From positions 2,423 through 66,422 of the forward strand of contig CAZLJP010000002.1 in the NCBI GenBank assembly GCA_964559915.1: a DNA stretch of 64,000 nt, written 5' to 3'. The position numbers and the translations under genes are program-made. The DNA comes from an uncultured Candidatus Saccharibacteria bacterium (GTDB lineage: Bacteria; Patescibacteriota; Saccharimonadia; Saccharimonadales; JALRHH01). The notes under the pieces are model-generated. The model was not told where the DNA came from and did not search any database. It saw nothing but the letters and a program-made list of their open reading frames with translations. Each line of letters opens with the position of its first letter. Position 1 is the stretch's first letter. This document shows positions 6,958-59,676 of this stretch, one piece after another.

Positions 6958-6969
6958 TATATAGGGTAT

Positions 6970-14038: not shown

Positions 14039-14057
14039 TGGCTAGGGCGGAGGGATT
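14039..14057 (-). pseudogene. 3' fragment of a second tRNA-Gln (T-stem 3' strand, acceptor 3' strand CGCCCTA, then G-CCA)
   Basis: 19 nt, identical to the 3' end of the intact tRNA-Gln except for one base; that base complements the variant base 2 of the 5' fragment at 14280-14328. Confidence 0.7.
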
Positions 14058-14169: not shown

Positions 14170-14279
14170 TTGTCAATTATACGGGATTCGACTCACCTTC
14201 GGCGAGCCCTCGACTTCATGATTGAAAACAAGTTTTCATCAGAAGGTCGACTTGCAGCTTGCCGCAGGCAATCTTCACT

Positions 14280-14328
14280 CCGAATGCCAGTACCAAAAAC
14301 TGGTGCCTTACCACTTGGCCACGCCCTA
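14280..14328 (-). pseudogene. 5' two-thirds of a second tRNA-Gln (acceptor 5' strand TAGGGCG through the first two T-stem bases)
   Basis: 49 nt, identical to positions 1-49 of the intact tRNA-Gln except for base 2 (A instead of G); diverges abruptly inside the T stem. Confidence 0.75.
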
Positions 14329-14352
14329 ATATACTTGTAAATTAACAGATTG

Positions 14353-14381
14353 ATTCTACCCTATAATCAACTAGAAGACAA
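14353..14381 (-). promoter_or_regulatory. possible promoter for the tRNA-Gln locus (TTGTCT-N17-TAGAAT on the minus strand)
   Basis: Hexamers read on the minus strand, about 20 nt upstream of the 5' tRNA fragment. Confidence 0.3.
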
Positions 14382-32692: not shown

Positions 32693-34108
32693 ATGTTCGA
32701 GAGTAATTTGCCGCTACCCTTGGCGCAACCACGCATCATGGGTCTAGAAACAGAGTATATGTTTATACCCCAGGTTAATGGGGCGGCAAATTTGGATAAC
32801 AGCTTACTTGGAAAAGCACTGCCAAGCGATATTCACATAAATAGTTCGTTTTTATCCAACGGTGCTCGGTTCTATATGGATACGGGTAGTCACCCCGAGT
32901 ATGCAACTCCGGAATGTTTGACTGGTCGCGGTGTGGCCATCGCCGCCGCTGCGGGTGAAATAATCACAGGAGCTACTGTAGGCACAGCACTCAGCCATGT
33001 ACCGAAAATTGCCCAGAACTTTGGTCTATTCAAGAGGACCGTCGACAGTAAGGGCGTCGTAGCGGGGGACCACGAGAACTACTATGTAACCAGAAATACA
33101 TTACCAAGTAGCGTTGCTCCACGCCTTGTACCACATCTAGTCAGCCGCATACTTTTTACAGGTCCAGGCATGGTAGATCGGGACGGACTCTTCTCCATCG
33201 ACCAACGTGCTTGGAGCATGAGCAACGAAGATATTGGCAGCACTAGCACCAAGGAACACAAACCATTTTTGTTATCACGTGAAGAAGATCACAGCAAGAA
33301 TGGTCGTCGCGTACAAGTTATGTCTGGGAGCGCCAATATGATGGGCCAGGCGATACAATTTAGATTCGACAGCACCTCACTAGCGCTACGACTGGTTGAG
33401 CACGGCAAGATTCCAAAATGGCTGCGCGTAGAAAACCCTGGCTACGCAATACAAAATATTGCCAGCGAACATCTGAATGACAGCCTCAAATTCAAAGAGA
33501 GAGTCAGGCTGGGTAATGGTTCCTATAGAACTGCAGCTGAGCTTCAGTATGAATACGCATCTCGAGCGTATTTACTTGGTGAGGCAGGCGATTTGAATGA
33601 ATACGATGCACAGTTTGCGCGACGCTGGGTAGAGATGAGCCAGGATGCTATGGATGGCAAGATTGATAAATGGAAAAATGAGATTGAATGGCTCACTAAA
33701 CTAGAGTTATTGCTTACATACAAGAGTGGTCGCGAGTCAGTATCAATCGAAAGAATGAAGCAGCTTGATATGAAATTTCACGAAGTCGTGTGCCTCCGTG
33801 CACAAACAATTCAAACAAAGCTCAAAAAGGCTGGGCGCATTGCATTAATCGCAAATGGCGGGGCTATAAAACAAGCTTGCTACGAAGCTCCCGACGATAC
33901 ACGAGCCAGAGTTCGCGGCAACGCAATTACAGCACTGGCCCGTGGCGCATTACCAGTCACCGCATACGGCAACTCACCACTTGTCCCCGAGTGGCTCCAA
34001 TGGCCAATTACGGATCGTCGCATGTTGGTGCACGCGGAAGGGCTACGCCTCCTGCAGGCCGATCCGTATTCTACCGAAGACGACTTCGCCAAAGTTACCG
34101 GCGCTTAG
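32693..34108 (+). CDS. Pup-ligase/deamidase family protein (PafA/Dop homolog)
   Basis: 471 aa; signatures RIMGLETEY, NGARFYMDTGSHPEYATPEC, GDHENYY and FTGPG typical of the PafA/Dop carboxylate-amine ligase family. Confidence 0.8.
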   Translation: MFESNLPLPLAQPRIMGLETEYMFIPQVNGAANLDNSLLGKALPSDIHINSSFLSNGARFYMDTGSHPEYATPECLTGRGVAIAAAAGEIITGATVGTALSHVPKIAQNFGLFKRTVDSKGVVAGDHENYYVTRNTLPSSVAPRLVPHLVSRILFTGPGMVDRDGLFSIDQRAWSMSNEDIGSTSTKEHKPFLLSREEDHSKNGRRVQVMSGSANMMGQAIQFRFDSTSLALRLVEHGKIPKWLRVENPGYAIQNIASEHLNDSLKFKERVRLGNGSYRTAAELQYEYASRAYLLGEAGDLNEYDAQFARRWVEMSQDAMDGKIDKWKNEIEWLTKLELLLTYKSGRESVSIERMKQLDMKFHEVVCLRAQTIQTKLKKAGRIALIANGGAIKQACYEAPDDTRARVRGNAITALARGALPVTAYGNSPLVPEWLQWPITDRRMLVHAEGLRLLQADPYSTEDDFAKVTGA

Positions 34109-37671: not shown

Positions 37672-37746
37672 TCCCGGGTGGCGCAGCGGTAGCGCAGTTG
37701 ACTGTTAATCAATTGGTCGCCGGTTCGAATCCGGCCCCGGGAGCCA
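37672..37746 (+). tRNA. tRNA-Asn (anticodon GUU), CCA encoded
   Basis: 75-nt cloverleaf read by hand: acceptor TCCCGGG/CCCGGGA, anticodon stem GTTGA/TCAAT with loop CTGTTAA, T arm GCCGG-TTCGAAT-CCGGC. Confidence 0.92.
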
Positions 37747-37752
37747 TGAAAG

Positions 37753-37778
37753 AAGACTCACATCTGTGGGTCTTTTTT
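37753..37778 (+). terminator. rho-independent terminator after tRNA-Asn
   Basis: 9-bp stem AAGACTCAC/GTGGGTCTT, 4-nt loop, T6 run. Confidence 0.8.
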
Positions 37779-37836
37779 CATGCTTCTGAGTCGGATTTGA
37801 ACCGGATCTTTTGTGAAACAAAAGCGGTTCGATAAG

Positions 37837-37876
37837 CAAGGCCACGCGCAGGAGCTAGCTCCGAGCATGGCTGCTG
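37837..37876. repeat. copy A of a 40-nt conserved core (GGAGCTAGCTCC hairpin inside a longer helix)
   Basis: 31/40 identical to 40348-40387; two base-pair positions covary between the copies. Confidence 0.6.
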
Positions 37877-37888
37877 GTTATATGTAAT

Positions 37889-37908
37889 AATCCGGCCCCG
37901 GGAGCCAT
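37889..37908 (+). repeat. exact 20-nt direct repeat of the tRNA-Asn 3' end (aatccggccccgggagccat)
   Basis: Identical to 37728-37747; att-like duplication 142 nt downstream of the tRNA. Confidence 0.9.
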
Positions 37909-37916
37909 ACAAAGAG

Positions 37917-37940
37917 CCCACCATTTTAGGTGGGTTTTTT
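37917..37940 (+). terminator. rho-independent terminator nested inside a 25-bp inverted repeat
   Basis: Stem CCCACC/GGTGGG, loop ATTTTA, T6 run. Confidence 0.7.
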
Positions 37941-37962
37941 GTATGGCTCCCGGGGTCGGATT
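37938..37962 (-). repeat. inverted copy of the tRNA-Asn 3' end motif (one mismatch)
   Basis: tttgtatggctcccggggtcggatt is the reverse complement of 37889-37913 with one substitution. Confidence 0.85.
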
Positions 37963-38291
37963 AACAGAACGTTCGATAATTTGACCGATCAGGGAAAATT
38001 ATATGCCGAAGCTAAGAATGACAAGTCCTATAAGAAATAAAGTCATTCCTGGCCTGAAGCTATAATCCGGCCAAAATCACAGGTCGCCCGGTTAGGTCTT
38101 CAAGGGCTATCGCAGGAATTCATTCTGAGAAAGCCTGTAGAAGTGCATCAGTCGGCCGATAGAGCCAATATCATAGTTAGAAATCCTAAATCGCCGAAAA
38201 TAACAGAAAAACAGACAAGACGAACGAACTTATTGCCGGCATTCTACCGATAATCAACCATAACAAATAGAAAATCCGTGTAAAATATCTT

Positions 38292-38777
38292 CTATTTACC
38301 GAATAACTGCGTTGAAAGCTCTGGTTCATCGGTTTCGGTCAGCAGATAAATACTGGCATTATCAAGTTCTTGTCTTGTACTACTATTCAAACCAAATGAC
38401 TGGCTAAAGATTTCTAGTATTTTGTGCTCTGAATCATCTCGTGCAACTCGGTTAATCGAAATCTTCTGGCATGCCAAACAGAGATGGATTAACATAATCT
38501 CACCTAGTCGATAATAGCCTTCGTGCTTAAATGTTAAGCCGATTGGCTCCATGCCGCCACAACAGGTTGCACGGCGGTCACCCTTAGTCTCGTCAACATG
38601 TTTTGACCAAAGGCACCAGTTGCAGTGGTTACGGTTGACCGTACCCATAATGTCGTTGATAACGACAAACTGTTTACAGTGCGAACAACGGAAGCCACCA
38701 GCTTTATGTTCTCGATTCCATTCCTGTTTTCTACGTTTTTTGTAATCTAATTCATCACTATACTCATAGCGTTTCAT
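38292..38777 (-). CDS. RNHCP domain-containing Cys-rich protein
   Basis: 161 aa; CSHC, NRNHCNWC, CCGG and CLAC cysteine clusters matching the RNHCP-domain pattern. Confidence 0.7.
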   Translation of the reverse strand: MKRYEYSDELDYKKRRKQEWNREHKAGGFRCSHCKQFVVINDIMGTVNRNHCNWCLWSKHVDETKGDRRATCCGGMEPIGLTFKHEGYYRLGEIMLIHLCLACQKISINRVARDDSEHKILEIFSQSFGLNSSTRQELDNASIYLLTETDEPELSTQLFGK

Positions 38778-38792
38778 CTATATCCCTACATG

Positions 38793-38817
38793 AAAAAACC
38801 AGCCAATACTGGCTGGT
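38793..38817 (-). terminator. rho-independent terminator inside the 5' leader of the RNHCP gene (attenuator segments 3:4)
   Basis: Minus-strand RNA ACCAGCCA-GTAT-TGGCTGGT followed by TTTTTT, 16 nt upstream of the SD (AGGGA) and ATG at 38777. Confidence 0.7.
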
Positions 38818-38880
38818 CATGCTGGATAGGTAGATGTACTAACTATTTTCTAAATTGATGTTCGAGTTAAGCTGTTTTTT

Positions 38881-38929
38881 GACCAGCCAGAAACTACCGC
38901 CTCGATAGCGGTGACGACTTCTGCACTGG
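38881..38929 (-). promoter_or_regulatory. candidate antiterminator (segment 2) and anti-antiterminator (segment 1) of the RNHCP leader
   Basis: RNA CTGGCTGGTC (reverse complement of 38881-38890) is a perfect 10-nt complement of terminator 5' arm GACCAGCCAG (reverse complement of 38809-38818). It can alternatively pair with CCAGTGCAGAA (reverse complement of 38919-38929). Confidence 0.45.
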
Positions 38930-39185
38930 TTGTGGTTTTATATCTGTAACTTAACATACATAGAAATTTTGGCACATAGATATATGTGCGTCAAATAATT
39001 GTTAGGTGTGAGGCTTCTATTTACAGGTATTGCAAGGTTAATATTCAATAACCCCAACAAGGTCGGTGTCAACTGTTTCTTCTATCGTGTTGGCTAGCTC
39101 GCAGTACCGGTACGCACATACGGCAACTTCATGCCAAAACTTCCTTTATCAGTCGTAACTTACACTCATCAAAATCCACACTTGC

Positions 39186-39215
39186 GGTTCGAAACTCGTC
39201 TGCTACCGGGAGCCA
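39186..39215 (+). repeat. tRNA-3'-end-like motif copy (ggttcgaaactcgtctgctaccgggagcca)
   Basis: Shares GGTTCGAA and CGGGAGCCA with the tRNA-Asn 3' end; internal 4-bp stem CTCG/CGGG with an 8-nt loop; followed by the terminator CACTTTG/CAAGGTG and TTTTTGTTT. Confidence 0.6.
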
Positions 39216-39273
39216 AGCATAAGCACTTTGTTGAAAGGCAAGGTGTTTTTGTTTAATTTGCTAAAATAATCAA

Positions 39274-39642
39274 ATGATAGAAATTGGCATTGAAACATCA
39301 ATTCTAGAAGACATCCTCTCTGGCAAAAAAACTATTGAATGCAGGCTAGGCAAGCAAAAGTTTCTGAAGATTAGGCCTGGAGACGTATTAAGCATTCGAG
39401 AAGATACATGGAAAGGTGACAAGATACTTCGCAGTATTCCAAATAGGGCAGAGATAAAGGTCACTCAAATTTTATATTTTGAAACTTTTACTGAGGCGTT
39501 CGCATCAATAGACTTTAAGGAAGCCATCCCAAGTGCAGCCTCGCCCAGTGAGGCAGTGGAAGCATATCGTAAATTTTATACTTCGGAAGACGAAAAAAAG
39601 TACGGGGTGGTAGCTATATATTTTGAACTCTTGCAGTTCTAA
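39274..39642 (+). CDS. ASCH (PUA-like) domain protein
   Basis: 122 aa; LSGKKTIECRLGK...IRPGD pattern typical of ASCH domains. Confidence 0.55.
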   Translation: MIEIGIETSILEDILSGKKTIECRLGKQKFLKIRPGDVLSIREDTWKGDKILRSIPNRAEIKVTQILYFETFTEAFASIDFKEAIPSAASPSEAVEAYRKFYTSEDEKKYGVVAIYFELLQF

Positions 39643-39664
39643 CCTCATCGACTAGAGGGAGTTA
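39636..39664 (+). repeat. tRNA-3'-end-like motif copy (gttctaacctcatcgactagagggagtta)
   Basis: 25/29 identical to 40208-40236; stem CCTC/GAGG with an 8-nt loop; overlaps the stop codon of the ASCH gene. Confidence 0.6.
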
Positions 39665-39703
39665 TAACGCTTAAGCTTTACAAACTATCATTTTTGTGGT
39701 ATT

Positions 39704-40198
39704 TTGTTTTTTATGTCAGAGGCATTCTCACCGCCAACCCAGCAAAAGCACGATGAACCGCATCTTGCACAAGATGTATTACTTTGGATAGTAAATGATT
39801 ACTTCCCGACAGAAGAAGATAGAGAGTTAGCCGAGTCTAGAAAAGCCGAAATCTTGGACGACATCCCATTTGATGTTTTGTATGCTCATTTAAATGATGA
39901 AGGTGAAGTGGGTATGGATGCCGATTATATTGGTGGTCTCCTATTACTAGCAAAAGAACGTATAGATGCAACTCCTGATGCAACCTCACAACTCACCAAT
40001 CTCAACATTATTCGCAACATGTCTGGTCACAATTTGAGTAAACCTACACCAACAGGTTTTCAATCACTCGCGCCCTCAAAGATACTGCGTGGCGAACTTG
40101 GACAAGAAACACAACTCGATTTCTTGCGAGGAATATTCTACGGAGTGCAGCTTGCAATTGAAGCCACTCAAATGGAAGATAAAGTTACTGAGGCATAA
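39704..40198 (+). CDS. hypothetical acidic protein
   Basis: 164-aa ORF (alternative ATG at 39713); no family recognised. Confidence 0.5.
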   Translation: MFFMSEAFSPPTQQKHDEPHLAQDVLLWIVNDYFPTEEDRELAESRKAEILDDIPFDVLYAHLNDEGEVGMDADYIGGLLLLAKERIDATPDATSQLTNLNIIRNMSGHNLSKPTPTGFQSLAPSKILRGELGQETQLDFLRGIFYGVQLAIEATQMEDKVTEA

Positions 40199-40206
40199 TT
40201 AGAATT

Positions 40207-40236
40207 AGTTCCAACCTCGTCGACTAGAGGGAGCCA
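40207..40236 (+). repeat. tRNA-3'-end-like motif copy (agttccaacctcgtcgactagagggagcca)
   Basis: Ends in GGGAGCCAT like the tRNA-Asn; stem CCTC/GAGG with an 8-nt loop; followed by a terminator ending GGGTCTTTTTT, as after the genuine tRNA. Confidence 0.65.
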
Positions 40237-40347
40237 TACAGAAAAGATCCTTATTCGAGGGTCTTTTTTGTATCTCCCCGTGTCGCATCCGAATTGGTGA
40301 CCGCAGATTTTCTTTAGAAAATATACAAGGTTGCCGAGTTTGGTCAT

Positions 40348-40387
40348 CAAGACCGCGCACAGGAGCTTGCTCCAAACACGGTTGCAG
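40348..40387. repeat. copy B of the 40-nt conserved core (GGAGCTTGCTCC hairpin)
   Basis: 31/40 identical to 37837-37876; same position relative to a preceding GGGAGCCAT motif and GGGTCTTTTTT terminator. Confidence 0.6.
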
Positions 40388-40592
40388 ATGTGCAACTATC
40401 CGAGCCCAAATTTGTTATTATAAGCGCAGGAATAGTAAACAGAAATCTTACGTAAACCAATTGTTTATTTTTTATGTTCAAAGTGCTACATTTACGAGAG
40501 ATGTGGCCAGGAGTCTTTGCATAAAAGCTGAGGGGGAAGACAACCTGTGACGTTATTATTTAATAAAGCTGAGATTCTAAGAAGGATGCGAG

Positions 40593-41978
40593 ATGGTAAA
40601 AGTTACAAAAATTGACACACCAGAACCAAGCAAGCATACGAAAAAGTCGTTGACCTCACTAGGTGTATTTAAGCGATGGTACACGAGGAAACCAGTAATT
40701 ATCACACTTTTGATATTTTTATTCCCTGTAGGCCTGGCACTAATGTGGAAGTTTGCTGTATGGACTAAAAAGACCAGGTGGGTTGTCACGGGGGTGACGG
40801 CGTTGTTAGTAATATTGGGTGCAATCGGTATCTACAACTCCACCCCTTCTATCGTCGTCAACAACACAAAAGGCAACAAGATAAACACTGATGATAGAGA
40901 ATATACACTTATGGGCAGAGTGTCTACGGCTAAGGGCGTAGCTAACCTGACTATTGATGGGCGATTCGTGTCCCTTACTGAAGACTCGGAATTCTCATAT
41001 AAAGTATCACTAGAAGAGGGTGATAATACTTTTAATCTAGCCTCCACAAATGAAAATGGTACATACGAAAAGTCAATACAGATACACCGTACAACCCAAG
41101 CTGAATTTGCAGCCAGAGCAGAATCAGAGAAGCTCAAAGCCGATAAAAATACCAACAAAGAGAGAAAAACTGAAGCACCAGCCCAGAAAAGCACAAATAG
41201 CGATGCATTCTACATCAACAATGCGTATTACAAAGGTGACAGTAAATACGACGTTGTCGTATACAGTTCCAGCAAGGATACTTTACAAATCTATATCAAT
41301 GACAAAAATCCAGTAAAAACCAAAGTAAACGATGAGGGTTGGGCTACGTTTAAGAATATCAAACTTAGCGGACGGTCAAAGCTGAGCTTTGCAAAAAAAG
41401 TTGGATGGATTAAGTATTCTCCTGTAAATTACGTTAAGTATATAAGCGTAGGCGGTAAGCAAGTAAAGTTAATGGATGCTGCCGAAGCGGTAGCGCTTGA
41501 TAAAGCTGATGCCGAAGCCAAAGCGGCAGCTGAAGCCAAGGCTCAAGCTGAAGCACAAGCCCAACACAACGCATATATAGGCGGCCTAGCAAAAACGTAC
41601 TGTTCAAATCATGCTGCGTGGAGAAAAATATATGTACCGCAAAGCACTTCAAAAGATGCGTGGGATAACCCGAACAAAGACTTAGTAACTACAAACCCTA
41701 AACAATCAGATTGCGTAACGATAATGACATTTTTTGTCGATGTTATGCTTTCAGAACACGTGGATAACATTGTCAATAAGAAAGTGGCAGTCGACATGAA
41801 TAGGGCTGAGGTGCTTGCATCTTGGGGTTGGCCCAATAACAACAGTAACTACTCATCGAGCTTAGGATCGTCTGATACTTGGAACTACAACACCGGAACT
41901 TGCTACTACGGTATATGTCCCAACCAGCAGTATGTTAATTTCTATAATGGCAAGGTGACAAGCACCGGAAATTACTAA
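40593..41978 (+). CDS. membrane-anchored extracytoplasmic hypothetical protein with an Ala/Glu/Lys/Gln-rich linker
   Basis: 461 aa; two N-terminal TM segments, AEAKAAAEAKAQAEAQAQ low-complexity linker, Cys-containing C-terminal domain; SD AAGGA. Confidence 0.6.
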   Translation: MVKVTKIDTPEPSKHTKKSLTSLGVFKRWYTRKPVIITLLIFLFPVGLALMWKFAVWTKKTRWVVTGVTALLVILGAIGIYNSTPSIVVNNTKGNKINTDDREYTLMGRVSTAKGVANLTIDGRFVSLTEDSEFSYKVSLEEGDNTFNLASTNENGTYEKSIQIHRTTQAEFAARAESEKLKADKNTNKERKTEAPAQKSTNSDAFYINNAYYKGDSKYDVVVYSSSKDTLQIYINDKNPVKTKVNDEGWATFKNIKLSGRSKLSFAKKVGWIKYSPVNYVKYISVGGKQVKLMDAAEAVALDKADAEAKAAAEAKAQAEAQAQHNAYIGGLAKTYCSNHAAWRKIYVPQSTSKDAWDNPNKDLVTTNPKQSDCVTIMTFFVDVMLSEHVDNIVNKKVAVDMNRAEVLASWGWPNNNSNYSSSLGSSDTWNYNTGTCYYGICPNQQYVNFYNGKVTSTGNY

Positions 41979-42065
41979 GAAACATCACGAGCAAATCTTG
42001 AGAATATACTGCATGAATTTGGCGGCTCATACTCAATATATACCTTCAGGAAGTCATCACACTTC

Positions 42066-42095
42066 AGTTCGAAACTCGTTCACTAGCGGGAGCCA
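42066..42095 (+). repeat. tRNA-3'-end-like motif copy (agttcgaaactcgttcactagcgggagcca)
   Basis: Close relative of 39186-39215, including the upstream cacactt; stem CTCG/CGGG with an 8-nt loop; a terminator follows (CTTCTG/CAGAGG then TTTTGTTTT). Confidence 0.6.
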
Positions 42096-42151
42096 TGAGC
42101 ATTGTGACTTCTGTTTCAACAGAGGTTTTGTTTTATGCTATACTCAAAATT

Positions 42152-42334
42152 ATGAGTGAAACCATTAGCAATCCAGATGGTTTAGATGAGAACTTCTGGG
42201 GACCTGCACCTACCGAAGAAGACATTGCAACTGCTGAATTAGAAATGGCAGAACGTGCTAAAAAATGGGAAACTAATCCTCCTAAAAGACCAGCGTACTA
42301 TCAACGACACCCAGACGCCTCAGAGCCTATCTAG
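42152..42334 (+). CDS. small hypothetical protein (60 aa)
   Basis: ATG 8 nt after TATACT (42138-42143); the track ORF start at 42095 lies inside the repeat/terminator and is unlikely. Confidence 0.45.
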   Translation: MSETISNPDGLDENFWGPAPTEEDIATAELEMAERAKKWETNPPKRPAYYQRHPDASEPI

Positions 42335-42340
42335 AGAAGC

Positions 42341-42370
42341 AGTCCTAACCTAGTAAGTTAGAGGGAATTA
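42341..42370 (+). repeat. diverged tRNA-3'-end-like motif copy (agtcctaacctagtaagttagagggaatta)
   Basis: Aligns with the 39636 and 40207 copies; a weaker hairpin; followed by the terminator ACCTCTG/CAGAGGT and TTTTTGTTTT. Confidence 0.45.
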
Positions 42371-42425
42371 AAAGTATTTGACCTCTGTTAACGCAGAGGT
42401 TTTTGTTTTCTGTTAGTATAAAGAT

Positions 42426-43112
42426 ATGCACAAAGAGCTATCTATTACTCTTATTGGCTCATTCAAGAAAGATCCTGAAGCGTTAAAGATTCTCTTTAAA
42501 CAACTTTCTGAGCAGTACACCATTCTCTCTCCAAAAACTATTGATTGGGTTGACCCCAATGATGAGTTCTTACGTGCTAAGCATGAAGGTGATAAGACTG
42601 TTCAAGAAATTGAAGAAGCTCACTTACATGCAATCCGCAACTCCGACTTCACGGTACTAGTTACACCCGATGGTTACGTGGGTCTTAGTGGTTCTCTAGA
42701 AGTAGGGTTTGCTCATGCGTTGGGAATACCAGTCATCGCAACAGAGACAGTCAATGATCAGACTATTGCAGCCATGGTTGACGGTATCCTTGGTGAAACA
42801 ATTGGCACTCATGATTACGGACGTGGTCTCAAAGCCTTACAGAAACAGTACGCCACTATTGCTAAGCGCAATAAATGGGACAAAGAATCTGCTCGCGACA
42901 CGATGTTGCTTTTAACCGAAGAAGTCGGTGAGTTGGCTCGAGCAATTCGCAAACACGAGGGCCTGGACAGAGATGGTGGATTTGACGTTCAGCTGAGCGA
43001 AGAACTGGCGGATGTACAGATATACTTGGCGCACTTAGCAAACACTGTTTCTATTGATCTTGGCGATGCGGTCACTAATAAGATAATAAAGAACCAGAGT
43101 AAAAAGACATGA
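42426..43112 (+). CDS. fusion protein: nucleoside 2-deoxyribosyltransferase-like N-terminal domain plus MazG-type nucleotide pyrophosphohydrolase C-terminal domain
   Basis: 228 aa; C-terminal EEVGELARAIRK...EELADVQIYLAHLAN is a MazG signature; N-terminal IGSF...AIRNSDFTVLV...GYVGLSGSLEVGFAHALGIPV resembles the NDT/Rcl-like Rossmann fold. Confidence 0.55.
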   Translation: MHKELSITLIGSFKKDPEALKILFKQLSEQYTILSPKTIDWVDPNDEFLRAKHEGDKTVQEIEEAHLHAIRNSDFTVLVTPDGYVGLSGSLEVGFAHALGIPVIATETVNDQTIAAMVDGILGETIGTHDYGRGLKALQKQYATIAKRNKWDKESARDTMLLLTEEVGELARAIRKHEGLDRDGGFDVQLSEELADVQIYLAHLANTVSIDLGDAVTNKIIKNQSKKT

Positions 43113-43136
43113 ATTCATAACCCGTTCTGGTTATGC

Positions 43137-43164
43137 TTGCAGTTATTTCTTATAGGCATACAAT
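43137..43164 (+). promoter_or_regulatory. promoter TTGCAG-N16-TACAAT with upstream GGTTATGC
   Basis: Member of the TTATGCTTGC motif set; the downstream gene has a strong AGGAGGAGG SD. Confidence 0.4.
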
Positions 43165-43213
43165 ATTTAAAATTCTGACGAATGTTTTTAGATAAACCAT
43201 AGGAGGAGGCAAT

Positions 43214-43588
43214 ATGTTTGGTCACAAGAACGAAGAATGGAAAACTCCAGTTGGTGAACTCTTTGTACATAGTCATGTCTATGAATCACAAGATGGAGCC
43301 GAACATGAAGGACTTGAAGAAGTCACCACAAGAAGTGCTTTCAATTTCTCCAAGAAACTCGGCCGCTTAAGACAAAAGCACGCCCCAGAATCACAGGCCA
43401 TTATCCCAACTGGTGTCGATGAGATAGGGGAGTTTATTGCTGACTCATTCGGCAAACTGCGTGAAGCCTCAATGCAGCAATCTGATTTTATGTCAGGTGA
43501 TGTCTTTGTTGTTGGCAAGAACGGTAGTTTGCGGCGTATTAATGAAGATGGCTCACAACAACAAATCATTGAACCTAGCCGCGTATAG
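43214..43588 (+). CDS. hypothetical protein
   Basis: 124-aa ORF with a strong SD; no family recognised. Confidence 0.55.
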   Translation: MFGHKNEEWKTPVGELFVHSHVYESQDGAEHEGLEEVTTRSAFNFSKKLGRLRQKHAPESQAIIPTGVDEIGEFIADSFGKLREASMQQSDFMSGDVFVVGKNGSLRRINEDGSQQQIIEPSRV

Positions 43589-43621
43589 CAATAGTCGGAG
43601 AGGTTTTTGTTTTGGTTATGC

Positions 43622-43650
43622 TTGCAACTGGGCACGAGATTTGAAATATT
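43622..43650 (+). promoter_or_regulatory. promoter TTGCAA-N17-AATATT with upstream GGTTATGC, 6 nt before the ATG
   Basis: Read directly; leaderless geometry. Confidence 0.4.
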
Positions 43651-43656
43651 AAAGTC

Positions 43657-43941
43657 ATGTGTGAATTCAACAGCCCTTACTCTCTATCAAGTGGCCATTG
43701 CTTAGACAACCCAGCAGCGCCCAGCTACACCAGAACCGAGCCTATCGTACAGTCACCCCAGGCTTGGGAAACACGAGCGGCCGAGCTAGATGAAAGTCAT
43801 GCTGCAGTTATTGCCCAGGCAGAGAACGATGCAGCTGCACTGCAAGCTGATGTGCACTTTTATAAGTCACTTGGTTCAAAATTCATCGGGATTGCACTGA
43901 GGCCTGGCACTGGCCCAACAGTAAAAATCTGGGAACATTAG
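43657..43941 (+). CDS. hypothetical protein
   Basis: 94-aa ORF; no family recognised. Confidence 0.45.
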   Translation: MCEFNSPYSLSSGHCLDNPAAPSYTRTEPIVQSPQAWETRAAELDESHAAVIAQAENDAAALQADVHFYKSLGSKFIGIALRPGTGPTVKIWEH

Positions 43942-43942
43942 G

Positions 43943-43974
43943 ATTAGCCCCGCCCTCGTCCACCAGGGAACCCA
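43943..43974 (+). repeat. most diverged tRNA-3'-end-like motif copy (attagccccgccctcgtccaccagggaaccca)
   Basis: Stem CCCT/AGGG with an 8-nt loop; followed by agcataagcact, the same 12-mer that follows the 39186 copy. Confidence 0.45.
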
Positions 43975-44139
43975 GCATAAGCACTGTACGATTTTTGTAA
44001 TCTATGGTATAATTTACCCAAGCAAGTGGTTATTATAGCCTCTCCGTCTCTATAACTAGTCCTTCAAAAGACTTACTATCATTTTCGGGCAGACATACTA
44101 AGTATGAGTGATATTAAGTAAAAGCAAGGATACACAATT

Positions 44140-44400
44140 ATGGCAACTAAATTATACGTAGGTGGACTCTCATACAGCGTCAAAGATACTGATCTTGAGG
44201 CAATGTTTACAGAATTTGGCACCGTAGCCAGCGCAAAAGTAATCACTGACCGTGACAGCGGCCAATCAAAAGGTTTTGGATTTGTTGAGTTGAACGACGA
44301 TGCAGAAGCAAAAGCCGCAATTGCAGCCCTAAACGGCAAAGACGTTGAAGGCCGCAGCCTGACCGTCAACGAAGCACGTCCCCAAACTGACCGTCGCTAG
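44140..44400 (+). CDS. RRM-type RNA-binding protein
   Basis: 86 aa; RNP2 KLYVGGL and RNP1 KGFGFVEL; about 125-nt 5' UTR after an extended -10 (TGGTATAAT near 44005). Confidence 0.9.
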   Translation: MATKLYVGGLSYSVKDTDLEAMFTEFGTVASAKVITDRDSGQSKGFGFVELNDDAEAKAAIAALNGKDVEGRSLTVNEARPQTDRR

Positions 44401-44442
44401 TTAGTTTTAGCTCCAGCAACCTAAACAGTTAGTCTATTCGTC

Positions 44443-45492
44443 ATGTCCAAAATTAGTAAGTCTATTGAAATTGCCATCTCCACCAACAAGCGACTAAGCT
44501 CGATGAGCCTTGCGTCCCGTTTGGAAATTAAGGGTGTCCTGGAAAAGCAGTACAGCGATGTACGTATCACTGACATATGTGACAGTGAAGCACTTGATGA
44601 GCTGATTGCTCGCCAACCGGATTTGGTGTTTTTGGGCATGAAGTTTCTGAAGGGTGAATCGGGTACTAACACCGGTCCTATCTGGCTGAGCCAGCGTTTA
44701 TCTGAAGCGGGTATTGCATACACTGGTTCGGGCCGGGCTGCTTCGGCGCTTGAGCACAACAAACACTTGGCCAAACAGCAGGTCTCTAAGCATGGGCTGG
44801 CGACTGCTGCATCACTGCTTATCAAGCAGGGGATGCGCTATGGGGCACAAGACATCACCATTGGTTATCCGGTCTTTATTAAACCAGTGGATGGCGGCGG
44901 CGGGTCTGGTATTAATGAGCGTTCTCTTGTACATAACTTTGCTGCACTAAAGCTACAGATTGCATGGCTGATGGAGAACTACCAGGCTGACGTACTACTA
45001 GAAAGCTACCTGCCGGGCCGGGAGTTTAGCGTTGGCATACTACAAAAACCTTATTCAGCCCAGCCACACGCATTACCACTTGAAATAGTTGCGCCACTCA
45101 ATGGCACCGGCTCGCGGTTTCTGAGTAGCCGCATCAAGCAGGCAGATACAGAGCAAACCCTAAGAATCATGGACGAAGGCCTAAAAAGTAGCCTCAGCGG
45201 CTTTGCCATACGCGTATTTGAGGCACTCGGCGGCCGAGGCTACGGTCGAATTGATATCCGCATGGACTCTGATGGCACGCCGCACTTTCTTGAGGCAAAT
45301 TTACTGCCAAGTCTTCTGAATAACTACGGAAATTTGCCAAAAGCATCACTAATGAATATTGGCCTAACACACAGCCAGTTAATCCTGCAGATTGCGGCTC
45401 TGGGCATGAAAAGCAGCAGCAAACAACTACCCATTGCAGACAATCCATTGAGCTACATAGTGAGTACTACCCCTAAGCAGCTGCTCATATAA
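44443..45492 (+). CDS. ATP-grasp enzyme of the D-alanine--D-alanine ligase family
   Basis: 349 aa; YPVFIKPVDGGGGSGI, LLESYLPGREFSVGIL and GRIDIRMDSDGTPHFLEANLLPSL motifs. Confidence 0.7.
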   Translation: MSKISKSIEIAISTNKRLSSMSLASRLEIKGVLEKQYSDVRITDICDSEALDELIARQPDLVFLGMKFLKGESGTNTGPIWLSQRLSEAGIAYTGSGRAASALEHNKHLAKQQVSKHGLATAASLLIKQGMRYGAQDITIGYPVFIKPVDGGGGSGINERSLVHNFAALKLQIAWLMENYQADVLLESYLPGREFSVGILQKPYSAQPHALPLEIVAPLNGTGSRFLSSRIKQADTEQTLRIMDEGLKSSLSGFAIRVFEALGGRGYGRIDIRMDSDGTPHFLEANLLPSLLNNYGNLPKASLMNIGLTHSQLILQIAALGMKSSSKQLPIADNPLSYIVSTTPKQLLI

Positions 45493-45531
45493 ACATCTGG
45501 TCCTGGGTAATTATTTGTGTTTTGGTTATGC

Positions 45532-45560
45532 TTGCATTACCGGTAATTTAGCGCATAATG
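45532..45560 (+). promoter_or_regulatory. promoter TTGCAT-N16/17-CATAAT with upstream GGTTATGC, 8 nt before the ATG
   Basis: Read directly; leaderless geometry. Confidence 0.45.
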
Positions 45561-45567
45561 CACGATT

Positions 45568-46164
45568 ATGGAATTTGAATTCACAACCACTGATAGGCTC
45601 ATGACCGACAAACAGCTCGCCAACCATAGGCGCCTGTCCAGGGAGCGAATAGAAGCCTTGACCGACCAAAAGCAGCATATGGATGCCAGAAAAGCAGAGC
45701 TAGCACCACTGGTTGGAGCACTCATGTTTGATGCTTCGATTGTATACGATACCCTGCGACCGAATGCGCAGCACATTTCTGAGGCTACGATGGATTTCCC
45801 GCTAAAACATCAACAAATTAGCTTACATAAAGACTCTGTTTCTACGAGCGACCAGCTAATGATTCAACTACCCAACACTAACAGTCTGACTATTACACAA
45901 CTATCCCCTGAAGACGATTGGCATTTAAATATGATTCACAGTAGGCATATGGGCCCATTGACCACCGACCAGACCATACTAGAGGAGCTGGGCGGTCGGG
46001 ATATAAGTTTTAACACAGGCGTATTCCAATACTCAAAATTATGGAGCCGCAAGACATATTTTGTGGATGAGCCCTGCAGCTACTTCAATAACTACGCCGG
46101 GGCCGAGGAGCGTATTGAAATAATCAGCACAGATTTACAATCTGCCGTCAATCTTTATTCCTAG
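45568..46164 (+). CDS. hypothetical protein
   Basis: 198-aa ORF; no family recognised. Confidence 0.5.
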   Translation: MEFEFTTTDRLMTDKQLANHRRLSRERIEALTDQKQHMDARKAELAPLVGALMFDASIVYDTLRPNAQHISEATMDFPLKHQQISLHKDSVSTSDQLMIQLPNTNSLTITQLSPEDDWHLNMIHSRHMGPLTTDQTILEELGGRDISFNTGVFQYSKLWSRKTYFVDEPCSYFNNYAGAEERIEIISTDLQSAVNLYS

Positions 46165-46231
46165 AGTTATAGATTGAGTTTTACTAAGCGAGTCTGGAGC
46201 ACATAATAAGAAAACTTTGGGATGCTTATGC

Positions 46232-46260
46232 TTGCAAAAATCGAGTTGGTGGCATGAAAT
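46232..46260 (+). promoter_or_regulatory. promoter TTGCAA-N17-TGAAAT with upstream GCTTATGC, 6 nt before the ATG
   Basis: Read directly; leaderless geometry. Confidence 0.4.
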
Positions 46261-46266
46261 AGTTGC

Positions 46267-46665
46267 ATGCAATCTTTTGAGACAACATTTGTACTAAGAG
46301 TTTCCCAATTAGACACCACTGGCGTGGGCTGTTTCGCTTTAGACCCCCTACAAGAAGGGATGCGCCTGCACCTTCCTCATGACACGAGCACAAATCGGAT
46401 ACTCGCCATTGATGAGATACCTGACACGCATTTGAAGTACTGCCCGCGGCTTGAATCAGGCTATTTCCTGGCGCCTGCTAATTTTGCAATGATGTCTATC
46501 TTTTGGTATATCAACCACGATAAAAATCCCAATATTGTTACTGAGAAATGGCGCCTGTTTACCGCACGCGACATTGAACCAGGAGAGGAGTTGACTATGT
46601 ATTACCCAGACTTATTAACACACCCCAAGAACAAAGCATGGGTGATTCCAGAGCTACATATTTAA
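46267..46665 (+). CDS. SET domain protein (putative lysine methyltransferase)
   Basis: 132 aa; YINHDKNPN (NHSxxPN-like) and GEELTMYY (ELxxDY-like) motifs. Confidence 0.6.
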   Translation: MQSFETTFVLRVSQLDTTGVGCFALDPLQEGMRLHLPHDTSTNRILAIDEIPDTHLKYCPRLESGYFLAPANFAMMSIFWYINHDKNPNIVTEKWRLFTARDIEPGEELTMYYPDLLTHPKNKAWVIPELHI

Positions 46666-46688
46666 ATTTGCATATGTTATTCGAATTA

Positions 46689-46717
46689 TGGCCTCTGTTA
46701 TGGGGGTCTTTTTGTTT
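46689..46717 (+). terminator. rho-independent terminator
   Basis: Stem GGCCTC/GGGGTC (with G.U pairs), loop TGTTAT, then TTTTTGTTTG. Confidence 0.55.
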
Positions 46718-57017: not shown

Positions 57018-58271
57018 CTAGCGCTTTTTAGAGAGTGAATGGCCAACTTTTTCGATGGCACCAACCACCAACGCATTGCCCATAAAGAATGCGCGCTTAC
57101 CATCTGATACACCGGCTAGTTGTGTGTGATTATCGGGGAACATATCGAGCCTTTCGAGCTCCAAGGGAACAAGTCGACGTAGGCGGCCAGAGGGTGTCCT
57201 GACCACGTGTTTGAACCGGGAAGCGCCAGAGCCGCCCTCGCCGGTTATAATCGTTCGAGAGGGCTTGTCGAGCGCGTCAGGGAATACCATAGCACCTTCT
57301 GCATAGTGGTAGACATGCCCGCTGGTGCTTTTGCGCTCTTCTTTCTTAGCGCCTTTAAGATATGTCCAAGCGGGTAGTGTGGCTTCGGATATAAAGAACT
57401 CTTCGGGCACATCTTTTTCGTCAATTAATATATCTCCTAGCGTACTACTGTTGCCGGTATAGACTGGCACGGCTTTGCCGGTGTAAACCTTTCGGTCAAT
57501 TATCATGCCAGCAGTATCAAATGGGCTTAGCTTGGGTTTATTAGCAGAGAAATTATCCGTAAGTTCTGCATAGGTGCCCTCGAGGGCAACCTCGTGTGTT
57601 GTCAGAGTCTGTTCAATAGGGAAGGCATCAGCGAGCACACCGTCCCGGATCAGCCAGTCACTTGCGGTAGCTTTTTTAGCTTTTTCGTAGAGTTTTGTGC
57701 CTTTTTTGTAGCCAACAATAAACACACGGCGGCGGCGTTGCGGAAAACCGTAATCGGCCGCATTTATAACACGCCACTCTACGGCATACCCCAAGTCAGA
57801 GAGTGATGCCAGCATAACGGCAAAGTCTTTACCACGCTGATTGACGGGGGATTTGAGCAAACGGTCGACGTTTTCTAGGAACAAATAGTCTGGAGCTTTA
57901 TCAGCCTTGCGCTTCAGAATAGAGTAAATTGACCAAAACAGGACGCCCTTTTTCCCAATCAAACCATGAGAGTTCTTGAGGGTACTGGCAACAGAGTAAT
58001 CCTGGCACGGGAATCCGCCCACCAGCAAGTCGTGGTCAGGGATGGTTTCAAAATCAGTTTCAATGACTTTTTCAATATTGCGGCCATCGAAGCCCTTGTC
58101 GCCAAATCGCGCCATGTAGACTTCTGAGGCATGTTGTCGTGTTGTTGCGGGCTCGAATTGATTTGCCCATACAGTTTCAAAGCGCGTCTTTGTATTGCTA
58201 GCTCTATCAAGCCCAATACGGAAGCCTCCGACACCAGCGAAGAGCTCGACGATTTTAATTTTGTCTGCCAT
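57018..58271 (-). CDS. DNA (cytosine-5)-methyltransferase
   Basis: 417 aa; motif I ELFAGVGG, motif IV GGFPCQDYS, motif VI ENV, motif VIII QRRRRVF, motif X GNALVV. Confidence 0.93.
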   Translation of the reverse strand: MADKIKIVELFAGVGGFRIGLDRASNTKTRFETVWANQFEPATTRQHASEVYMARFGDKGFDGRNIEKVIETDFETIPDHDLLVGGFPCQDYSVASTLKNSHGLIGKKGVLFWSIYSILKRKADKAPDYLFLENVDRLLKSPVNQRGKDFAVMLASLSDLGYAVEWRVINAADYGFPQRRRRVFIVGYKKGTKLYEKAKKATASDWLIRDGVLADAFPIEQTLTTHEVALEGTYAELTDNFSANKPKLSPFDTAGMIIDRKVYTGKAVPVYTGNSSTLGDILIDEKDVPEEFFISEATLPAWTYLKGAKKEERKSTSGHVYHYAEGAMVFPDALDKPSRTIITGEGGSGASRFKHVVRTPSGRLRRLVPLELERLDMFPDNHTQLAGVSDGKRAFFMGNALVVGAIEKVGHSLSKKR

Positions 58272-58344
58272 GCTTAGCCATATTTTAGCAATTTAAACTG
58301 TTTCGATCAAGCCCATTTGGGGCAGCTTTGCTACAATTGTGTAT

Positions 58345-59676
58345 ATGGCTCAAGGCACCTACGACAAAACATCACCCCAATCGCTCCTGGAGTTTGCCCG
58401 TGGGCTGTCTGGCAAGACACTGGCTGAGGCCGTAGATATGTCTCAAGTTATAGAAAACACCCGCAATAAAGGCGACCTCGGTAAGATGGTCGAAAAATAC
58501 TATTATGGCGTTATAACTGACGACACGTCCCATGAGCCGGATTTTCCCGAGGCTGGCGTAGAGCTCAAAACCACAGGAGTGCTTAAGCGCTCAGCCGGTG
58601 GCTATCGAGCAAAAGAACGTCTTGTACTGACAATGATTAATTACATGAAATTGGTTAACGAAGAGTGGGGAAGTTCATCGCTGATGGAAAAATGTAGCAT
58701 GATGCTACTACTGTTTTATCTGTATGAAAAAGATTTGTCTATTTTTGACAGGCGCTTCGTGCTACATCCAGTTTTATTTGAGTTCCCTGAAGCAGACCTG
58801 CAGATTATTAAACGCGACTGGGAAACCATTCAACAAAAAATCAAAGACGGTAAGGCCCATGAACTATCAGAAGGTGACACGTACTACCTGAGTGCCTGTC
58901 GAAAGGGTTCGGGCGGCGAAAACGAAAAGCCCCGGCAGCAACCACGCTCAAGCATTCCAGCTAAATCTCGAGCGTTTTCACTCAAATCTAGTTATATGAA
59001 CCAGGTTATTTCCGGACACACCTCTGAAGTCGGTACGCTAAATATCACACCAAAAGTTACTATCGAACAAGCCACTCAGCGTAAATTTGAGCCCTATCTT
59101 GGTAAAACAATTGAAGAAATCTCGACAATGCTGGATTTTCACAAACAAGGCAAAAACAATAAAGGTTTTTATCGTAGCCTGACAATGCGGGTTCTTGGGG
59201 GCACTACACAAACCGTGCCCGAGCTGGAGAAAGCAGGAGTTGAGCTCAAGACCATCCGTGTGAATAAAGACTGGATGCCAGCCGAAGCAATGTCGTTTCC
59301 AACCTTCAAATATATGGATATCATCGATGAAACTTGGGAACAAAGCAGCTTCTTTGCCAAAATTGAGCAGAAGTTCTTGTTTGTGATTTTTAGAGAAGAT
59401 GAAAATGGTGATTTAAGGCTTGAGAAAGTTAACTACTGGAACATGCCGTATAGCGACCGCGAAGAGGCACGCCGCGTATGGGAAGAAACGAAACGGCGGG
59501 TGGTGAGTGATGCAAGTAGTCTACCCAAGTCATCCGAAAGCCGGGTTGCGCATGTTCGTCCTAAGGCCAGAGACGCCCAGGACACACTGCCTACGCCGCA
59601 GGGCACTATGCTTGTGAAGAAATGTTTTTGGCTGAACCGCAGCTATATAGCAGAGGTAATCAAGACAGCTCTTTAA
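58345..59676 (+). CDS. type II restriction endonuclease, Sau3AI/MutH-like
   Basis: N-terminal MutH-like catalytic pattern (GDLGKMVEKYY...EPDFPEAGVELKT) and a duplicated C-terminal pseudo-nuclease (VELKTIRV); divergent from the m5C methyltransferase; ATG 7 nt after TACAAT. Confidence 0.7.
   Translation: MAQGTYDKTSPQSLLEFARGLSGKTLAEAVDMSQVIENTRNKGDLGKMVEKYYYGVITDDTSHEPDFPEAGVELKTTGVLKRSAGGYRAKERLVLTMINYMKLVNEEWGSSSLMEKCSMMLLLFYLYEKDLSIFDRRFVLHPVLFEFPEADLQIIKRDWETIQQKIKDGKAHELSEGDTYYLSACRKGSGGENEKPRQQPRSSIPAKSRAFSLKSSYMNQVISGHTSEVGTLNITPKVTIEQATQRKFEPYLGKTIEEISTMLDFHKQGKNNKGFYRSLTMRVLGGTTQTVPELEKAGVELKTIRVNKDWMPAEAMSFPTFKYMDIIDETWEQSSFFAKIEQKFLFVIFREDENGDLRLEKVNYWNMPYSDREEARRVWEETKRRVVSDASSLPKSSESRVAHVRPKARDAQDTLPTPQGTMLVKKCFWLNRSYIAEVIKTAL

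Follow-up and report, generated by a model that had tools for sequence, protein, structure and literature searches.

By what mechanism does an array of small, unrelated genes come to stand behind a single tRNA gene in a bacterium with a tiny genome? Tiny genomes are typical of Saccharibacteria and other Patescibacteria, and, to our knowledge, little is known about how these bacteria gain genes. The question is raised by a 64-kb stretch of DNA from an uncultured Saccharibacteria bacterium (contig CAZLJP010000002.1; the whole stretch is hereafter called the window), in which a tRNA-Asn gene (anticodon GTT; 37672-37746, + strand; found by ARAGORN, and by Rfam at 70.9 bits) is followed by a gene island reaching to 46708. 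The original prediction, made from the letters of this DNA, had described a tRNA-Asn-anchored accessory region of short self-contained units, a description that our analysis supports, and had offered two origins for it, tandem accretion by a tyrosine integrase followed by erosion, or a cassette-like system whose recombinase is encoded elsewhere. Here, we describe a conserved site (M) that recurs along the island, a family of large serine recombinases (LSRs) found at the same tRNA gene in relatives and a second repeat (E), and then weigh how the array may have formed. Our best reading is that the island is neither an integron nor the product of tyrosine-integrase accretion; with moderate confidence, we take the tRNA-Asn 3′ end to be the attB of widespread Saccharibacteria LSR elements and the island of the window to be an LSR-less array of attR-type junctions.

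A conserved site downstream of tRNA-Asn

M (AGTTCGAAnCTCGTCCACTAGnGGGAGCCA) is a site of about 30-31 nt, present in the window as six co-oriented copies downstream of tRNA-Asn. The 30-nt motif AGTTCNAANCTCGTNNNCTAGNGGGAGCCA matches the + strand at 39186, 39635, 40207 and 42066 (0 expected in shuffles), two more diverged + strand copies were read from the sequence at 42341-42370 and 43943-43974, and a hidden Markov model search found no copy elsewhere in the window. Across Saccharibacteria, the search returned 82 copies at E ≤ 0.01 from 41 sources. Among the 46 sources with tRNA-Asn, M is downstream and co-oriented in 31 cases, upstream in none and on the opposite strand in a single weak copy, with 419 kb of sequence covered upstream as against 290 kb downstream. 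In all 25 sources with several copies, these lie on one strand, and an exact-pattern scan of metagenome contigs gave 37 loci, mostly with several co-oriented copies; in this unbiased scan tRNA-Asn lies upstream of M in 8/8 loci that contain one. M is thus not found at gene ends elsewhere in the window or in the relatives, and an uptake-signal or repetitive extragenic palindrome (REP)-type genome-wide repeat was rejected since neither the other 55 kb of the window nor the 419 kb upstream of tRNA-Asn in relatives contain M.

The six copies with a 5-nt insertion relative to the tRNA end had been noticed in the original prediction and are real, but they are not the eroded tRNA ends that it took them for. 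The 66 distinct copies of M have the consensus AGTTGCGAAGYWCGTCCACTAGNGGGAGCCA, with the near-invariant stretch CGTC..CACTAG.GGGAGCCA and 19 near-invariant positions in all, and GGAGCCA is the sole stretch shared with the tRNA-Asn of most host genomes. In the window, the six sites share 7-9 nt with tRNA-Asn, and the tRNA-identical repeat of at least 15 nt belongs instead to E1, the first copy of the second repeat (37889-37907). Judged from its sequence, M is a separate conserved site rather than a decayed tRNA copy. What is conserved is sequence, not pairing: single-stranded DNA folds of six junctions show the terminator hairpin only (z-scores +1.0 to -1.7, except where the terminator dominates), and Rfam, at gathering and at relaxed thresholds, gave no match for M and found only the two true tRNAs. 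A tRNA-like or otherwise known RNA was rejected, as neither M nor E matches an Rfam family and M is unfolded, and so was a viral origin, as IMG/VR held no exact match to M, PHROGs gave generic ASCH and MazG matches only and PADLOC gave none.

Across copies, M starts between -8 and +14 nt from a stop codon in 41 of 70 cases. The predicted placement of M directly after stop codons applies in the window to the copy at 39635 (M2), which overlaps the ASCH stop codon, and to those at 40207 (M3, at 9 nt), 42341 and 43943, which begin 2-9 nt past a stop, and does not apply to 39186 and 42066, which come after non-coding stretches. Terminator-like hairpins were found where predicted downstream of the copies at 39186, 42066 and 42341, and of the last gene. 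The quality of M falls distally along the array, the distal copies being degenerate, which fits insertion at the tRNA-proximal end.

Large serine recombinases at the same tRNA gene in relatives

The island had been predicted to lack a recombinase, and none was found in the window by regular-expression scans or by Pfam searches of unassigned open reading frames (ORFs), nor did tblastn with six LSR queries find an LSR gene or fragment. What the window contains is thus a set of sites without a complete LSR element. The LSRs concerned have the catalytic motif R-K-S-S, not R-V-S-T, so that recombinase expressions built on R-V-S-T miss them.

In relatives, the same tRNA gene does carry a recombinase. 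In L131 (loci in relatives are numbered with L), reached via contigs that encode a related SmpB (P0070), a tRNA-Asn identical to that of the window has an LSR gene antisense just downstream, and 11 further contigs are similar. Full or fragmentary LSRs downstream of tRNA-Asn, always antisense, occur in 9 of the 46 sources (tblastn), and the loci with an LSR at tRNA-Asn comprise L131, L029, L054, L055, L064 and L139-L147. The proteins have Resolvase, Recombinase and Zn_ribbon domains. In L029, L054, L064 and L055, the LSR frame crosses the GAGCCA core and ends inside the antisense tRNA 3′ end, and so do the frames of the independent homologues of L139-L147 (50-56% identity), which come from human oral and marine metagenomes; the C-terminal residues in these loci are ...W-L-R-x-L-D/G-S-N-Q*. 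The family has 937 matches. A close homologue in L136 (10001-11536; 75% identity) ends antisense inside a tRNA-Asp gene, which indicates that the family has switched tRNA targets.

The LSR elements are 9-11 kb long; besides a 60-aa HTH_17/MerR gene that may encode a directionality factor, they carry a SpoVG-like gene, two ORFs of about 370 aa and cargo. In L029, L143 and L139, the right end of the element, 9-11 kb from the tRNA, is an M-like site (ACTAGTTCGTAATGTTTCCACTAGACGGAGCCA, CAGTTCGCAACGTGTCAGCCAGTGCGAGCCA and ...CAAGGGGAGCCA, respectively) followed by a terminator, so that these elements are bounded by a tRNA-Asn crossed by the LSR frame and by an M-like far site, as in attL- and attR-type ends. 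In L098, a 500-aa LSR and a rolling-circle Rep are followed by three M-terminated cassettes; the Rep, a REP_ORF2-G2P protein, adjoins the LSR beside the M array (6885-9456) on a contig without tRNA-Asn, and the two may represent a small integrated single-stranded DNA phage or plasmid.

A further element, F, is a conserved non-coding sequence of about 250 nt directly after the CCA of tRNA-Asn, with no Rfam match (L006 10707-10975; L131 10602-10840; also L040, L046, L051, L052, L054, L061 and L062). It reads (G/A)ACCAAGCAC.AACAGAGGTAGACCGG..TCC..GACCGG ... CCTCTGTTAG.GGTTCGAATCC ... GACCGGGTTCC.TGACC and is present in 9 of the 46 sources. In L131, F separates the tRNA from the stop codon of the LSR and thus probably represents the LSR-proximal end of one subfamily of elements; outside L131, it is orphaned or stands beside LSR fragments. 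Just downstream of F in L062 (10912-11178) are three or four low-GC tRNA genes (Trp, Cys and one more), in a segment bounded by a second tRNA-Asn-end copy and an LSR fragment (14041-14355).

Geometry of the proposed half-sites and shared junctions

The tRNA and M differ in a constant way. The tRNA end reads GGTTCGAAT-N10-GAGCCA and M reads AGTTCGAAC-N15-GAGCCA, the GTTCGAA box thus standing 10 nt from GAGCCA in tRNA-Asn and 15 nt in M, an offset of 5 nt. In serine integrases, the 7-8-bp motif bound by the zinc-ribbon domain lies 5 bp nearer the centre in attB than in attP, at bp 11-19 and 16-24, respectively (PMC3783163). With its box 5 nt further out than that of the tRNA, M looks, under this rule, like an attP-type half-site, and the 5-bp offset agrees with the attP-versus-attB rule as far as the sequences go. 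We propose that the tRNA-Asn 3′ end, GGTTCGAATCCGGCCCCGGGAGCCA, combines an attB-type left half-site with the crossover core GAGCCA. The geometry suggests a crossover at about the GA of GGAGCCA, and an M copy of L098 diverges after GGGA.

The right arm after GCCA falls into few classes; in the commonest, AGCATAAGCAC leads into a terminator hairpin and a T-run, and an extended -10 box then precedes the ATG by about 7 nt. Three classes are common to the tRNA CCA and to M, namely AGCATAAGCAC plus terminator, TAAGCATTTTGACCTCTGTT, and terminator plus E, and this sharing places the exchange point in GGAGCCA. The short distance from the -10 box to the ATG implies leaderless mRNAs. In one class of junction, the descending arm of the terminator (GTGGTATTTT) doubles as the extended -10 box, with ATG 7-9 nt later (e.g. 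window 39665-39715, L094 3025, L102 665, and L090 after the tRNA), which hints at leaderless cassette mRNAs and at a terminator that serves as promoter too.

That each gene has its own promoter, as had been predicted, gains nothing from a generic promoter scan (18 found versus 17.9 expected, no enrichment); the evidence lies in the conserved extended -10 and TTATGCTTGCA boxes read in junctions, each of which has a terminator and, after it, an extended -10 or a TTGCA -35 box. The TTATGCTTGCA box, a -35 box, occurs at 43131, 43616, 45526 and 46226; since other genomes have it outside arrays too, it is a feature of promoters rather than a recombination site. A dif/Xer-like site was rejected as well: the inverted repeat CATAACC-N6-GGTTATG at 43116 is a single copy, and TTATGCTTGCA is a general promoter box.

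Cargo of the arrays

L060 and L109 provide textbook examples of arrays, with six or seven cassettes, each of 0.6-1.4 kb. The cargo is diverse, with 38 Pfam families in 57 cassettes; among the 25 best-represented of the 38 families, none is a recombinase and just one is matched by more than one cassette. An all-against-all comparison of 70 cassette proteins found no shared cassettes, linking identical populations only, and mobility via shared cassettes was rejected, the nearest ASCH homologues (51-58% identity) standing in unrelated, M-free contexts. The contig with the nearest ASCH homologue, L121 (Logan SRR31761990; 20 kb), has a run of about 25 mostly plus-strand small accessory genes, including bacteriorhodopsin, NUDIX and SNase genes, with no M, E or tRNA-Asn, and may be an array with a different junction type.

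Upstream of the island, the block ATP synthase ... glycosyltransferase family 2 (GT2) - two glycoside hydrolase (GH)-like genes - SmpB - tRNA-Asn is common to many relatives. In 80 species-level relatives, the GH-GH-SmpB-tRNA-Asn part is kept, unlike the island genes; neither these nor the right flank are conserved downstream of tRNA-Asn, so the island is not a core region of the lineage. Its GC content is also lower, as the GC profile proposed in the original prediction shows (0.40-0.44 over 38-44 kb versus 0.47-0.49 in the flanks). The SmpB of the window genome has at most 80-87% identity to any other recorded sequence. Exact-protein look-ups aimed at strain variation found sister assemblies with the same gene order as the window, and one protein without a record.

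A second repeat with a copy of the tRNA end

An exact copy of the final 19 nt of tRNA-Asn stands at 37889-37907, and an inverted one with 1 mismatch at 37944-37962 (3 matches of the 19-mer versus 0.02 expected), much as predicted. Exact tRNA-end repeats also occur in relatives (14), 146-190 nt or several kb downstream of tRNA-Asn. The exact copy at 37889-37907 is the end of a second repeat, E, which in the window occupies 37747-37907 and 40237-40407, with a partial copy at 38083-38157, and which is present in 10 of the 46 sources. E always follows GCCA and a bidirectional-looking terminator, and its terminus is an exact copy of the host's own tRNA-Asn 3′ end, in the relatives as in E1 of the window, E2 being degenerate. 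Its hairpin P2 covaries strongly: it pairs in 91% of cells versus 28-41% in slid controls, with 27 compensatory cells versus 8 in shuffles (0/500 shuffles as high). No known Rfam family corresponds to E.

The tail of E (GGTTCGGT-CGTC ... GTGCACTAT ... GGAGCCA) is like M with P2 inserted. In L008 and L027, the LSR-proximal sequence F stands directly after the tRNA-end copy of E, as if that copy had been used as attB. The hairpins, and the length of 146-190 nt of the E units, led us to consider a single-strand mechanism of the HUH/IS200 type. The scanned loci contain no Y1/HUH gene apart from the rolling-circle replication Rep of L098; for E, such a mechanism may nevertheless apply.

How the array may have formed

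In our preferred reading, M would be an attP-type left half-site joined to the shared core GAGCCA and would form an attR-type junction together with its right flank, and the tRNA would supply the left half of attB. An LSR element would integrate at tRNA-Asn and later excise with a directionality factor, via an internal or more proximal attR. Excision via a proximal attR would restore a usable attB (tRNA plus right arm) and leave the distal cassettes in place, whereas excision via a more distal attR would capture resident cassettes. Repeated cycles would build an array whose units are small cargo genes with their own terminator and promoter, left behind at the tRNA site, the oldest and most decayed being the most distal. 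In the window genome, the recombinase would act in trans or have been lost. Excision through alternative M sites would agree with the sharing of right arms and with the occurrence of the tRNA junction in two states, occupied by an LSR or joined to a cassette-type right arm. The reading is based on the single orientation of M downstream of tRNA-Asn and its place behind stop codons, on the LSR at the same site, on the M-like ends of the elements and on the 5-bp offset; the declining quality of M, the low GC of the island, the candidate directionality factor of the elements and the LSR and Rep followed by M-terminated cassettes in L098 are counted in its favour.

Several observations weigh against it. 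Canonical serine integrases recombine attP with attB only, and the tandem build-up of attR-type junctions is something that we infer; no excision product or alternative junction has been observed. The exact 16-19-nt tRNA-end copy in E is not predicted by a 2-bp serine-recombinase crossover, and, on inspection of the junctions, the right half-site has no clear dyad symmetry with M. The M-like ends of L029, L139 and L143 are weak in the M model (E 0.18 to >5) and were found partly by eye, and no such far end was found in L064 or L054 within the available sequence. Arrays in L083, L092 and L098 have no tRNA-Asn within 6-12 kb upstream, no cassette was found in two different array positions, the proteins being nearly all unique, and a search of the whole 64-kb window met neither an LSR gene nor a fragment of one.

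A more far-reaching version, which we hold only tentatively, is an integron-like capture platform run by the LSR in place of a tyrosine recombinase, with tRNA-Asn as docking site, the M sites as interchangeable attR-type cassette ends and LSR shuttles that bring in and take up single-gene cassettes, depending on which M site they use when they excise; E would be an accessory, for instance a spare docking site.

Rather unlikely, in our judgement, is that the units are fossil scars, i.e. stumps of LSR elements whittled down by ordinary deletion, with M sites as dead attR relics in an immobile array that is no longer the substrate of any recombinase. The missing LSR and the degenerate distal M copies of the window would be expected of such an array, as would the lack of any cassette common to two arrays, and decayed LSR fragments and orphan F sequences beside tRNA-Asn are common (L027, L051, L061 and L062; F in 9/46 sources). 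Random deletion, however, does not explain the uniform junction GCCA | AGCATAAGCAC-terminator-extended -10-ATG in dozens of genomes, nor why the tRNA is joined to the same right-arm classes, and 19 positions remain near-invariant in 66 distinct M copies while the genes between them are unrelated. New integration would moreover need an intact attB, which imprecise deletion rarely restores.

More doubtful still is a module acting at the RNA level or through homologous recombination, in which M and the terminator form a 3′-untranslated-region unit, for example a signal for processing or protein binding copied from the end of the tRNA-Asn transcript, and junctions of about 90 nt are reshuffled after natural transformation without any site-specific recombinase. 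M always lies between a stop codon and an intrinsic terminator and is thus transcribed, the E hairpin has compensatory changes and G-U pairs on the sense strand, and Saccharibacteria are naturally competent and recombine incoming DNA (PMC10633639). Yet M has no fold of its own (z about 0 unless the terminator is included) and no Rfam match, its conservation is in sequence and not in pairing, and the restriction to tRNA-Asn, the 5-bp offset, the core-crossing LSR frames and the M-like element ends would be left unexplained.

Taken literally, the two origins first proposed are very improbable, for although the exact 19-nt repeat at 37889 and its like in relatives have a length typical of tyrosine-integrase att sites, and tandem accretion with partial-tRNA scars is known from tycheposons (10.1101/2020.12.28.424599), no tyrosine recombinase signature was found in the window or in loci L001-L118 (regular expressions), among the 57 cassette proteins (25 best-represented of 38 families) or in the kb-scale segments flanked by tRNA-end repeats (Pfam). 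What sets M apart from the tRNA, moreover, is an offset that is always 5 nt and a CACTAG box that is conserved, not random decay. An integron with attC sites and a distant IntI is rejected, M having neither hairpin nor RYYYAAC...GTTRRRY core boxes, the cassettes having their own promoters and no IntI being found in the window or the scanned loci. The family that uses the site in relatives is the LSR; a cassette-like system with a recombinase elsewhere was the closer of the two proposals.

Organization of the island in the window

Directly after the tRNA comes E1 (37747-37907, + strand; nhmmer E-value 7e-30; RNA fold z-score -3.0), made up of a terminator hairpin, the long hairpin P1 (GAACCGG...CGGTTC), the hairpin P2 (CCACGCGCAGGAGCTAGCTCCGAGCATGG) and the exact 19-nt tRNA-Asn end. 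The next segment (37908-37962, + strand) holds a terminator hairpin (GAGCCCACC...GGTGGGTTTTTT), matched solely by spurious miRNA-like hits, and then the inverted tRNA-end copy, which together with 37889-37907 makes an inverted repeat of about 25 bp. The partial third copy of E, covering the P2 region, follows on the + strand (38083-38157; nhmmer E-value 1.2e-4). The only minus-strand unit is an RNHCP-domain gene (38292-38777; PF12647, E-value 1e-24), which has no M site of its own. Instead of the two non-coding stretches of 325 and 490 bp originally described, we find three (37747-38291, 38778-39273 and 40199-40592), which contain the repeat E. The part of about 400 nt upstream of M1 (38778-39185) has no ORF and a minus-strand terminator-like hairpin (38797-38818), and is probably a decayed cassette gene.

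All remaining units are on the + strand. Behind M1 (GGTTCGAAACTCGTCTGCTACCGGGAGCCA; 39186-39215) stand the canonical right arm AGCATAAGCAC and, at 39221-39248, a terminator. The ASCH-domain cassette (39274-39664), identified by Pfam and pattern match, comprises the gene (39274-39642) and M2 (39635-39664), and the next (39704-40236) encodes a 164-aa protein with no family match (39704-40198) before M3 (40207-40236). E2 (40237-40407; nhmmer E-value 8e-27), with terminator, P1, P2 and a degenerate tRNA-3′-like end (ATCCGAGCCC), adjoins M3 on its 3′ side exactly as E1 adjoins tRNA-Asn. The unit at 40593-42127 contains a gene for a 461-aa membrane or secreted protein (40593-41978), M4 (42066-42095), the top-scoring M of the window in the profile search (8.5e-8), and a terminator (42106-42127). 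After it, a unit at 42153-42401 has a small ORF (to 42334), the diverged M5 (AGTCCTAACCTAGTAAGTTAGAGGGAATTA; 42341-42370) and a terminator (42380-42401); the ORF had been read as 79 aa from 42095, but its start is more probably at 42153.

The unit at 42426-43974 holds an NDT-like/MazG gene (42426-43112), ORFs of 124 aa (43214-43588) and 94 aa (43657-43941) and the diverged M6 (43943-43974; ...CCACCAGGGAACCCA), directly after which stands the canonical right arm GCATAAGCAC (43975-43984). The distal units (44140-46708), in which no M is recognisable, are an RRM gene (44140-44400), a Ddl-like ATP-grasp gene (44443-45492), a 198-aa ORF (45568-46164) and a SET gene (46267-46665), with the last terminator at 46690-46708. 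Pfam finds RNHCP, ASCH, MazG with weak NDT, RRM_1, Dala_Dala_lig_C and SET in the island, confirming the domains that had been named.

Elsewhere in the window, a Pup-ligase family protein (32693-34108; PF03136, 9e-72) is encoded between a CobA-like gene and the glycosyltransferase/GH block. At 57018-59676, a cytosine-methyltransferase-like gene (FAGxGG motif N-terminal, read from the sequence) stands divergent to a MutH/Sau3AI-like endonuclease gene (Pfam MutH, 1.6e-38), and the two likely form a restriction-modification pair.

Significance for gene gain in ultra-small bacteria

The island points to a gene-collecting platform so far undescribed in these ultra-small bacteria; full-text searches of the literature returned neither a description of this architecture in Saccharibacteria or other candidate phyla radiation (CPR) bacteria nor serine integrases at tRNA-Asn. 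On this reading, accessory genes would repeatedly enter Saccharibacteria genomes at one defined locus, which is marked by a short sequence, M, that can be searched for in any metagenome, and which is linked to a large, uncharacterised serine integrase family whose target, the end of tRNA-Asn, is predictable and universal. For strain-level variation in these epibionts, the locus suggests a mechanism that can be tested. Saccharibacteria have become genetically tractable only recently, and the family, one homologue of which is from a human oral metagenome, is a candidate site-specific integration tool for them. If arrays form by alternative attR use, this would be the first cassette-collecting system on serine-recombinase chemistry. 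The platform would also account for assemblies of these genomes breaking at tRNA-Asn: they often end at, or within about 170 nt after, SmpB/tRNA-Asn (L132-L135, L013, L041, L049, L052, L057 and L001), which is consistent with strain heterogeneity or repeats at a hot spot.

Comparison with known systems

Large serine integrases integrate by recombination of attP with attB and excise by recombination of attL with attR, which depends on a recombination directionality factor; in the integrated element, attL (B-core-P′) adjoins the integrase gene and attR (P-core-B′) marks the far end. The serine integrases of A118/LI, Bxb1, phiC31 and SPbeta belong to the same family (Resolvase, Recombinase and zinc ribbon) as the proteins found at the site in relatives, and the likeness extends to a short shared core, an outer 7-8-bp motif 5 bp further out in the phage-type half-site (PMC3783163), an integrase gene adjoining the att site and a small helix-turn-helix gene as possible directionality factor. 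Here, in contrast, a tRNA gene is targeted at its 3′ end, the integrase frame crosses attL into the antisense tRNA, and many attR-type sites follow one another without an integrase, each with a single small gene. By themselves, the canonical rules of serine integrases do not permit serial insertion.

In integrons, an IntI tyrosine recombinase gene adjoins the array, and the cassettes mostly lack promoters and depend on Pc for their expression; the attC sites, imperfect palindromes 57-141 nt in length with RYYYAAC...GTTRRRY boxes, fold as single-stranded DNA. Clusters of attC sites lacking integron integrases (CALINs) are also known (PMC4889954). The arrays described here resemble both in their co-oriented, mostly single and unrelated accessory genes, a conserved site directly after each stop codon, insertion apparently at one fixed end, the lack of an adjacent recombinase and the diverse cargo. 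Unlike in integrons and CALINs, M is a linear motif, not a folded imperfect palindrome, there is no IntI, the cassettes carry a terminator and a promoter, and the anchor is a tRNA gene, not attI.

Accretion of cis-mobilizable elements (CIMEs) and integrative and conjugative elements (ICEs) in streptococci provides another type of tRNA-anchored island formed by serial integration. The tycheposons of Prochlorococcus (10.1101/2020.12.28.424599) are similar to the present locus in having a hot spot at a tRNA 3′ end, older insertions pushed distally, integrase-less remnants and partial tRNA copies scattered in the island. Tycheposons, CIMEs and ICEs, however, use tyrosine recombinases and long tRNA-identical att repeats and are multi-gene elements, whereas the arrays downstream of tRNA-Asn in Saccharibacteria have a distinct conserved repeat, single-gene units and a linked serine recombinase.

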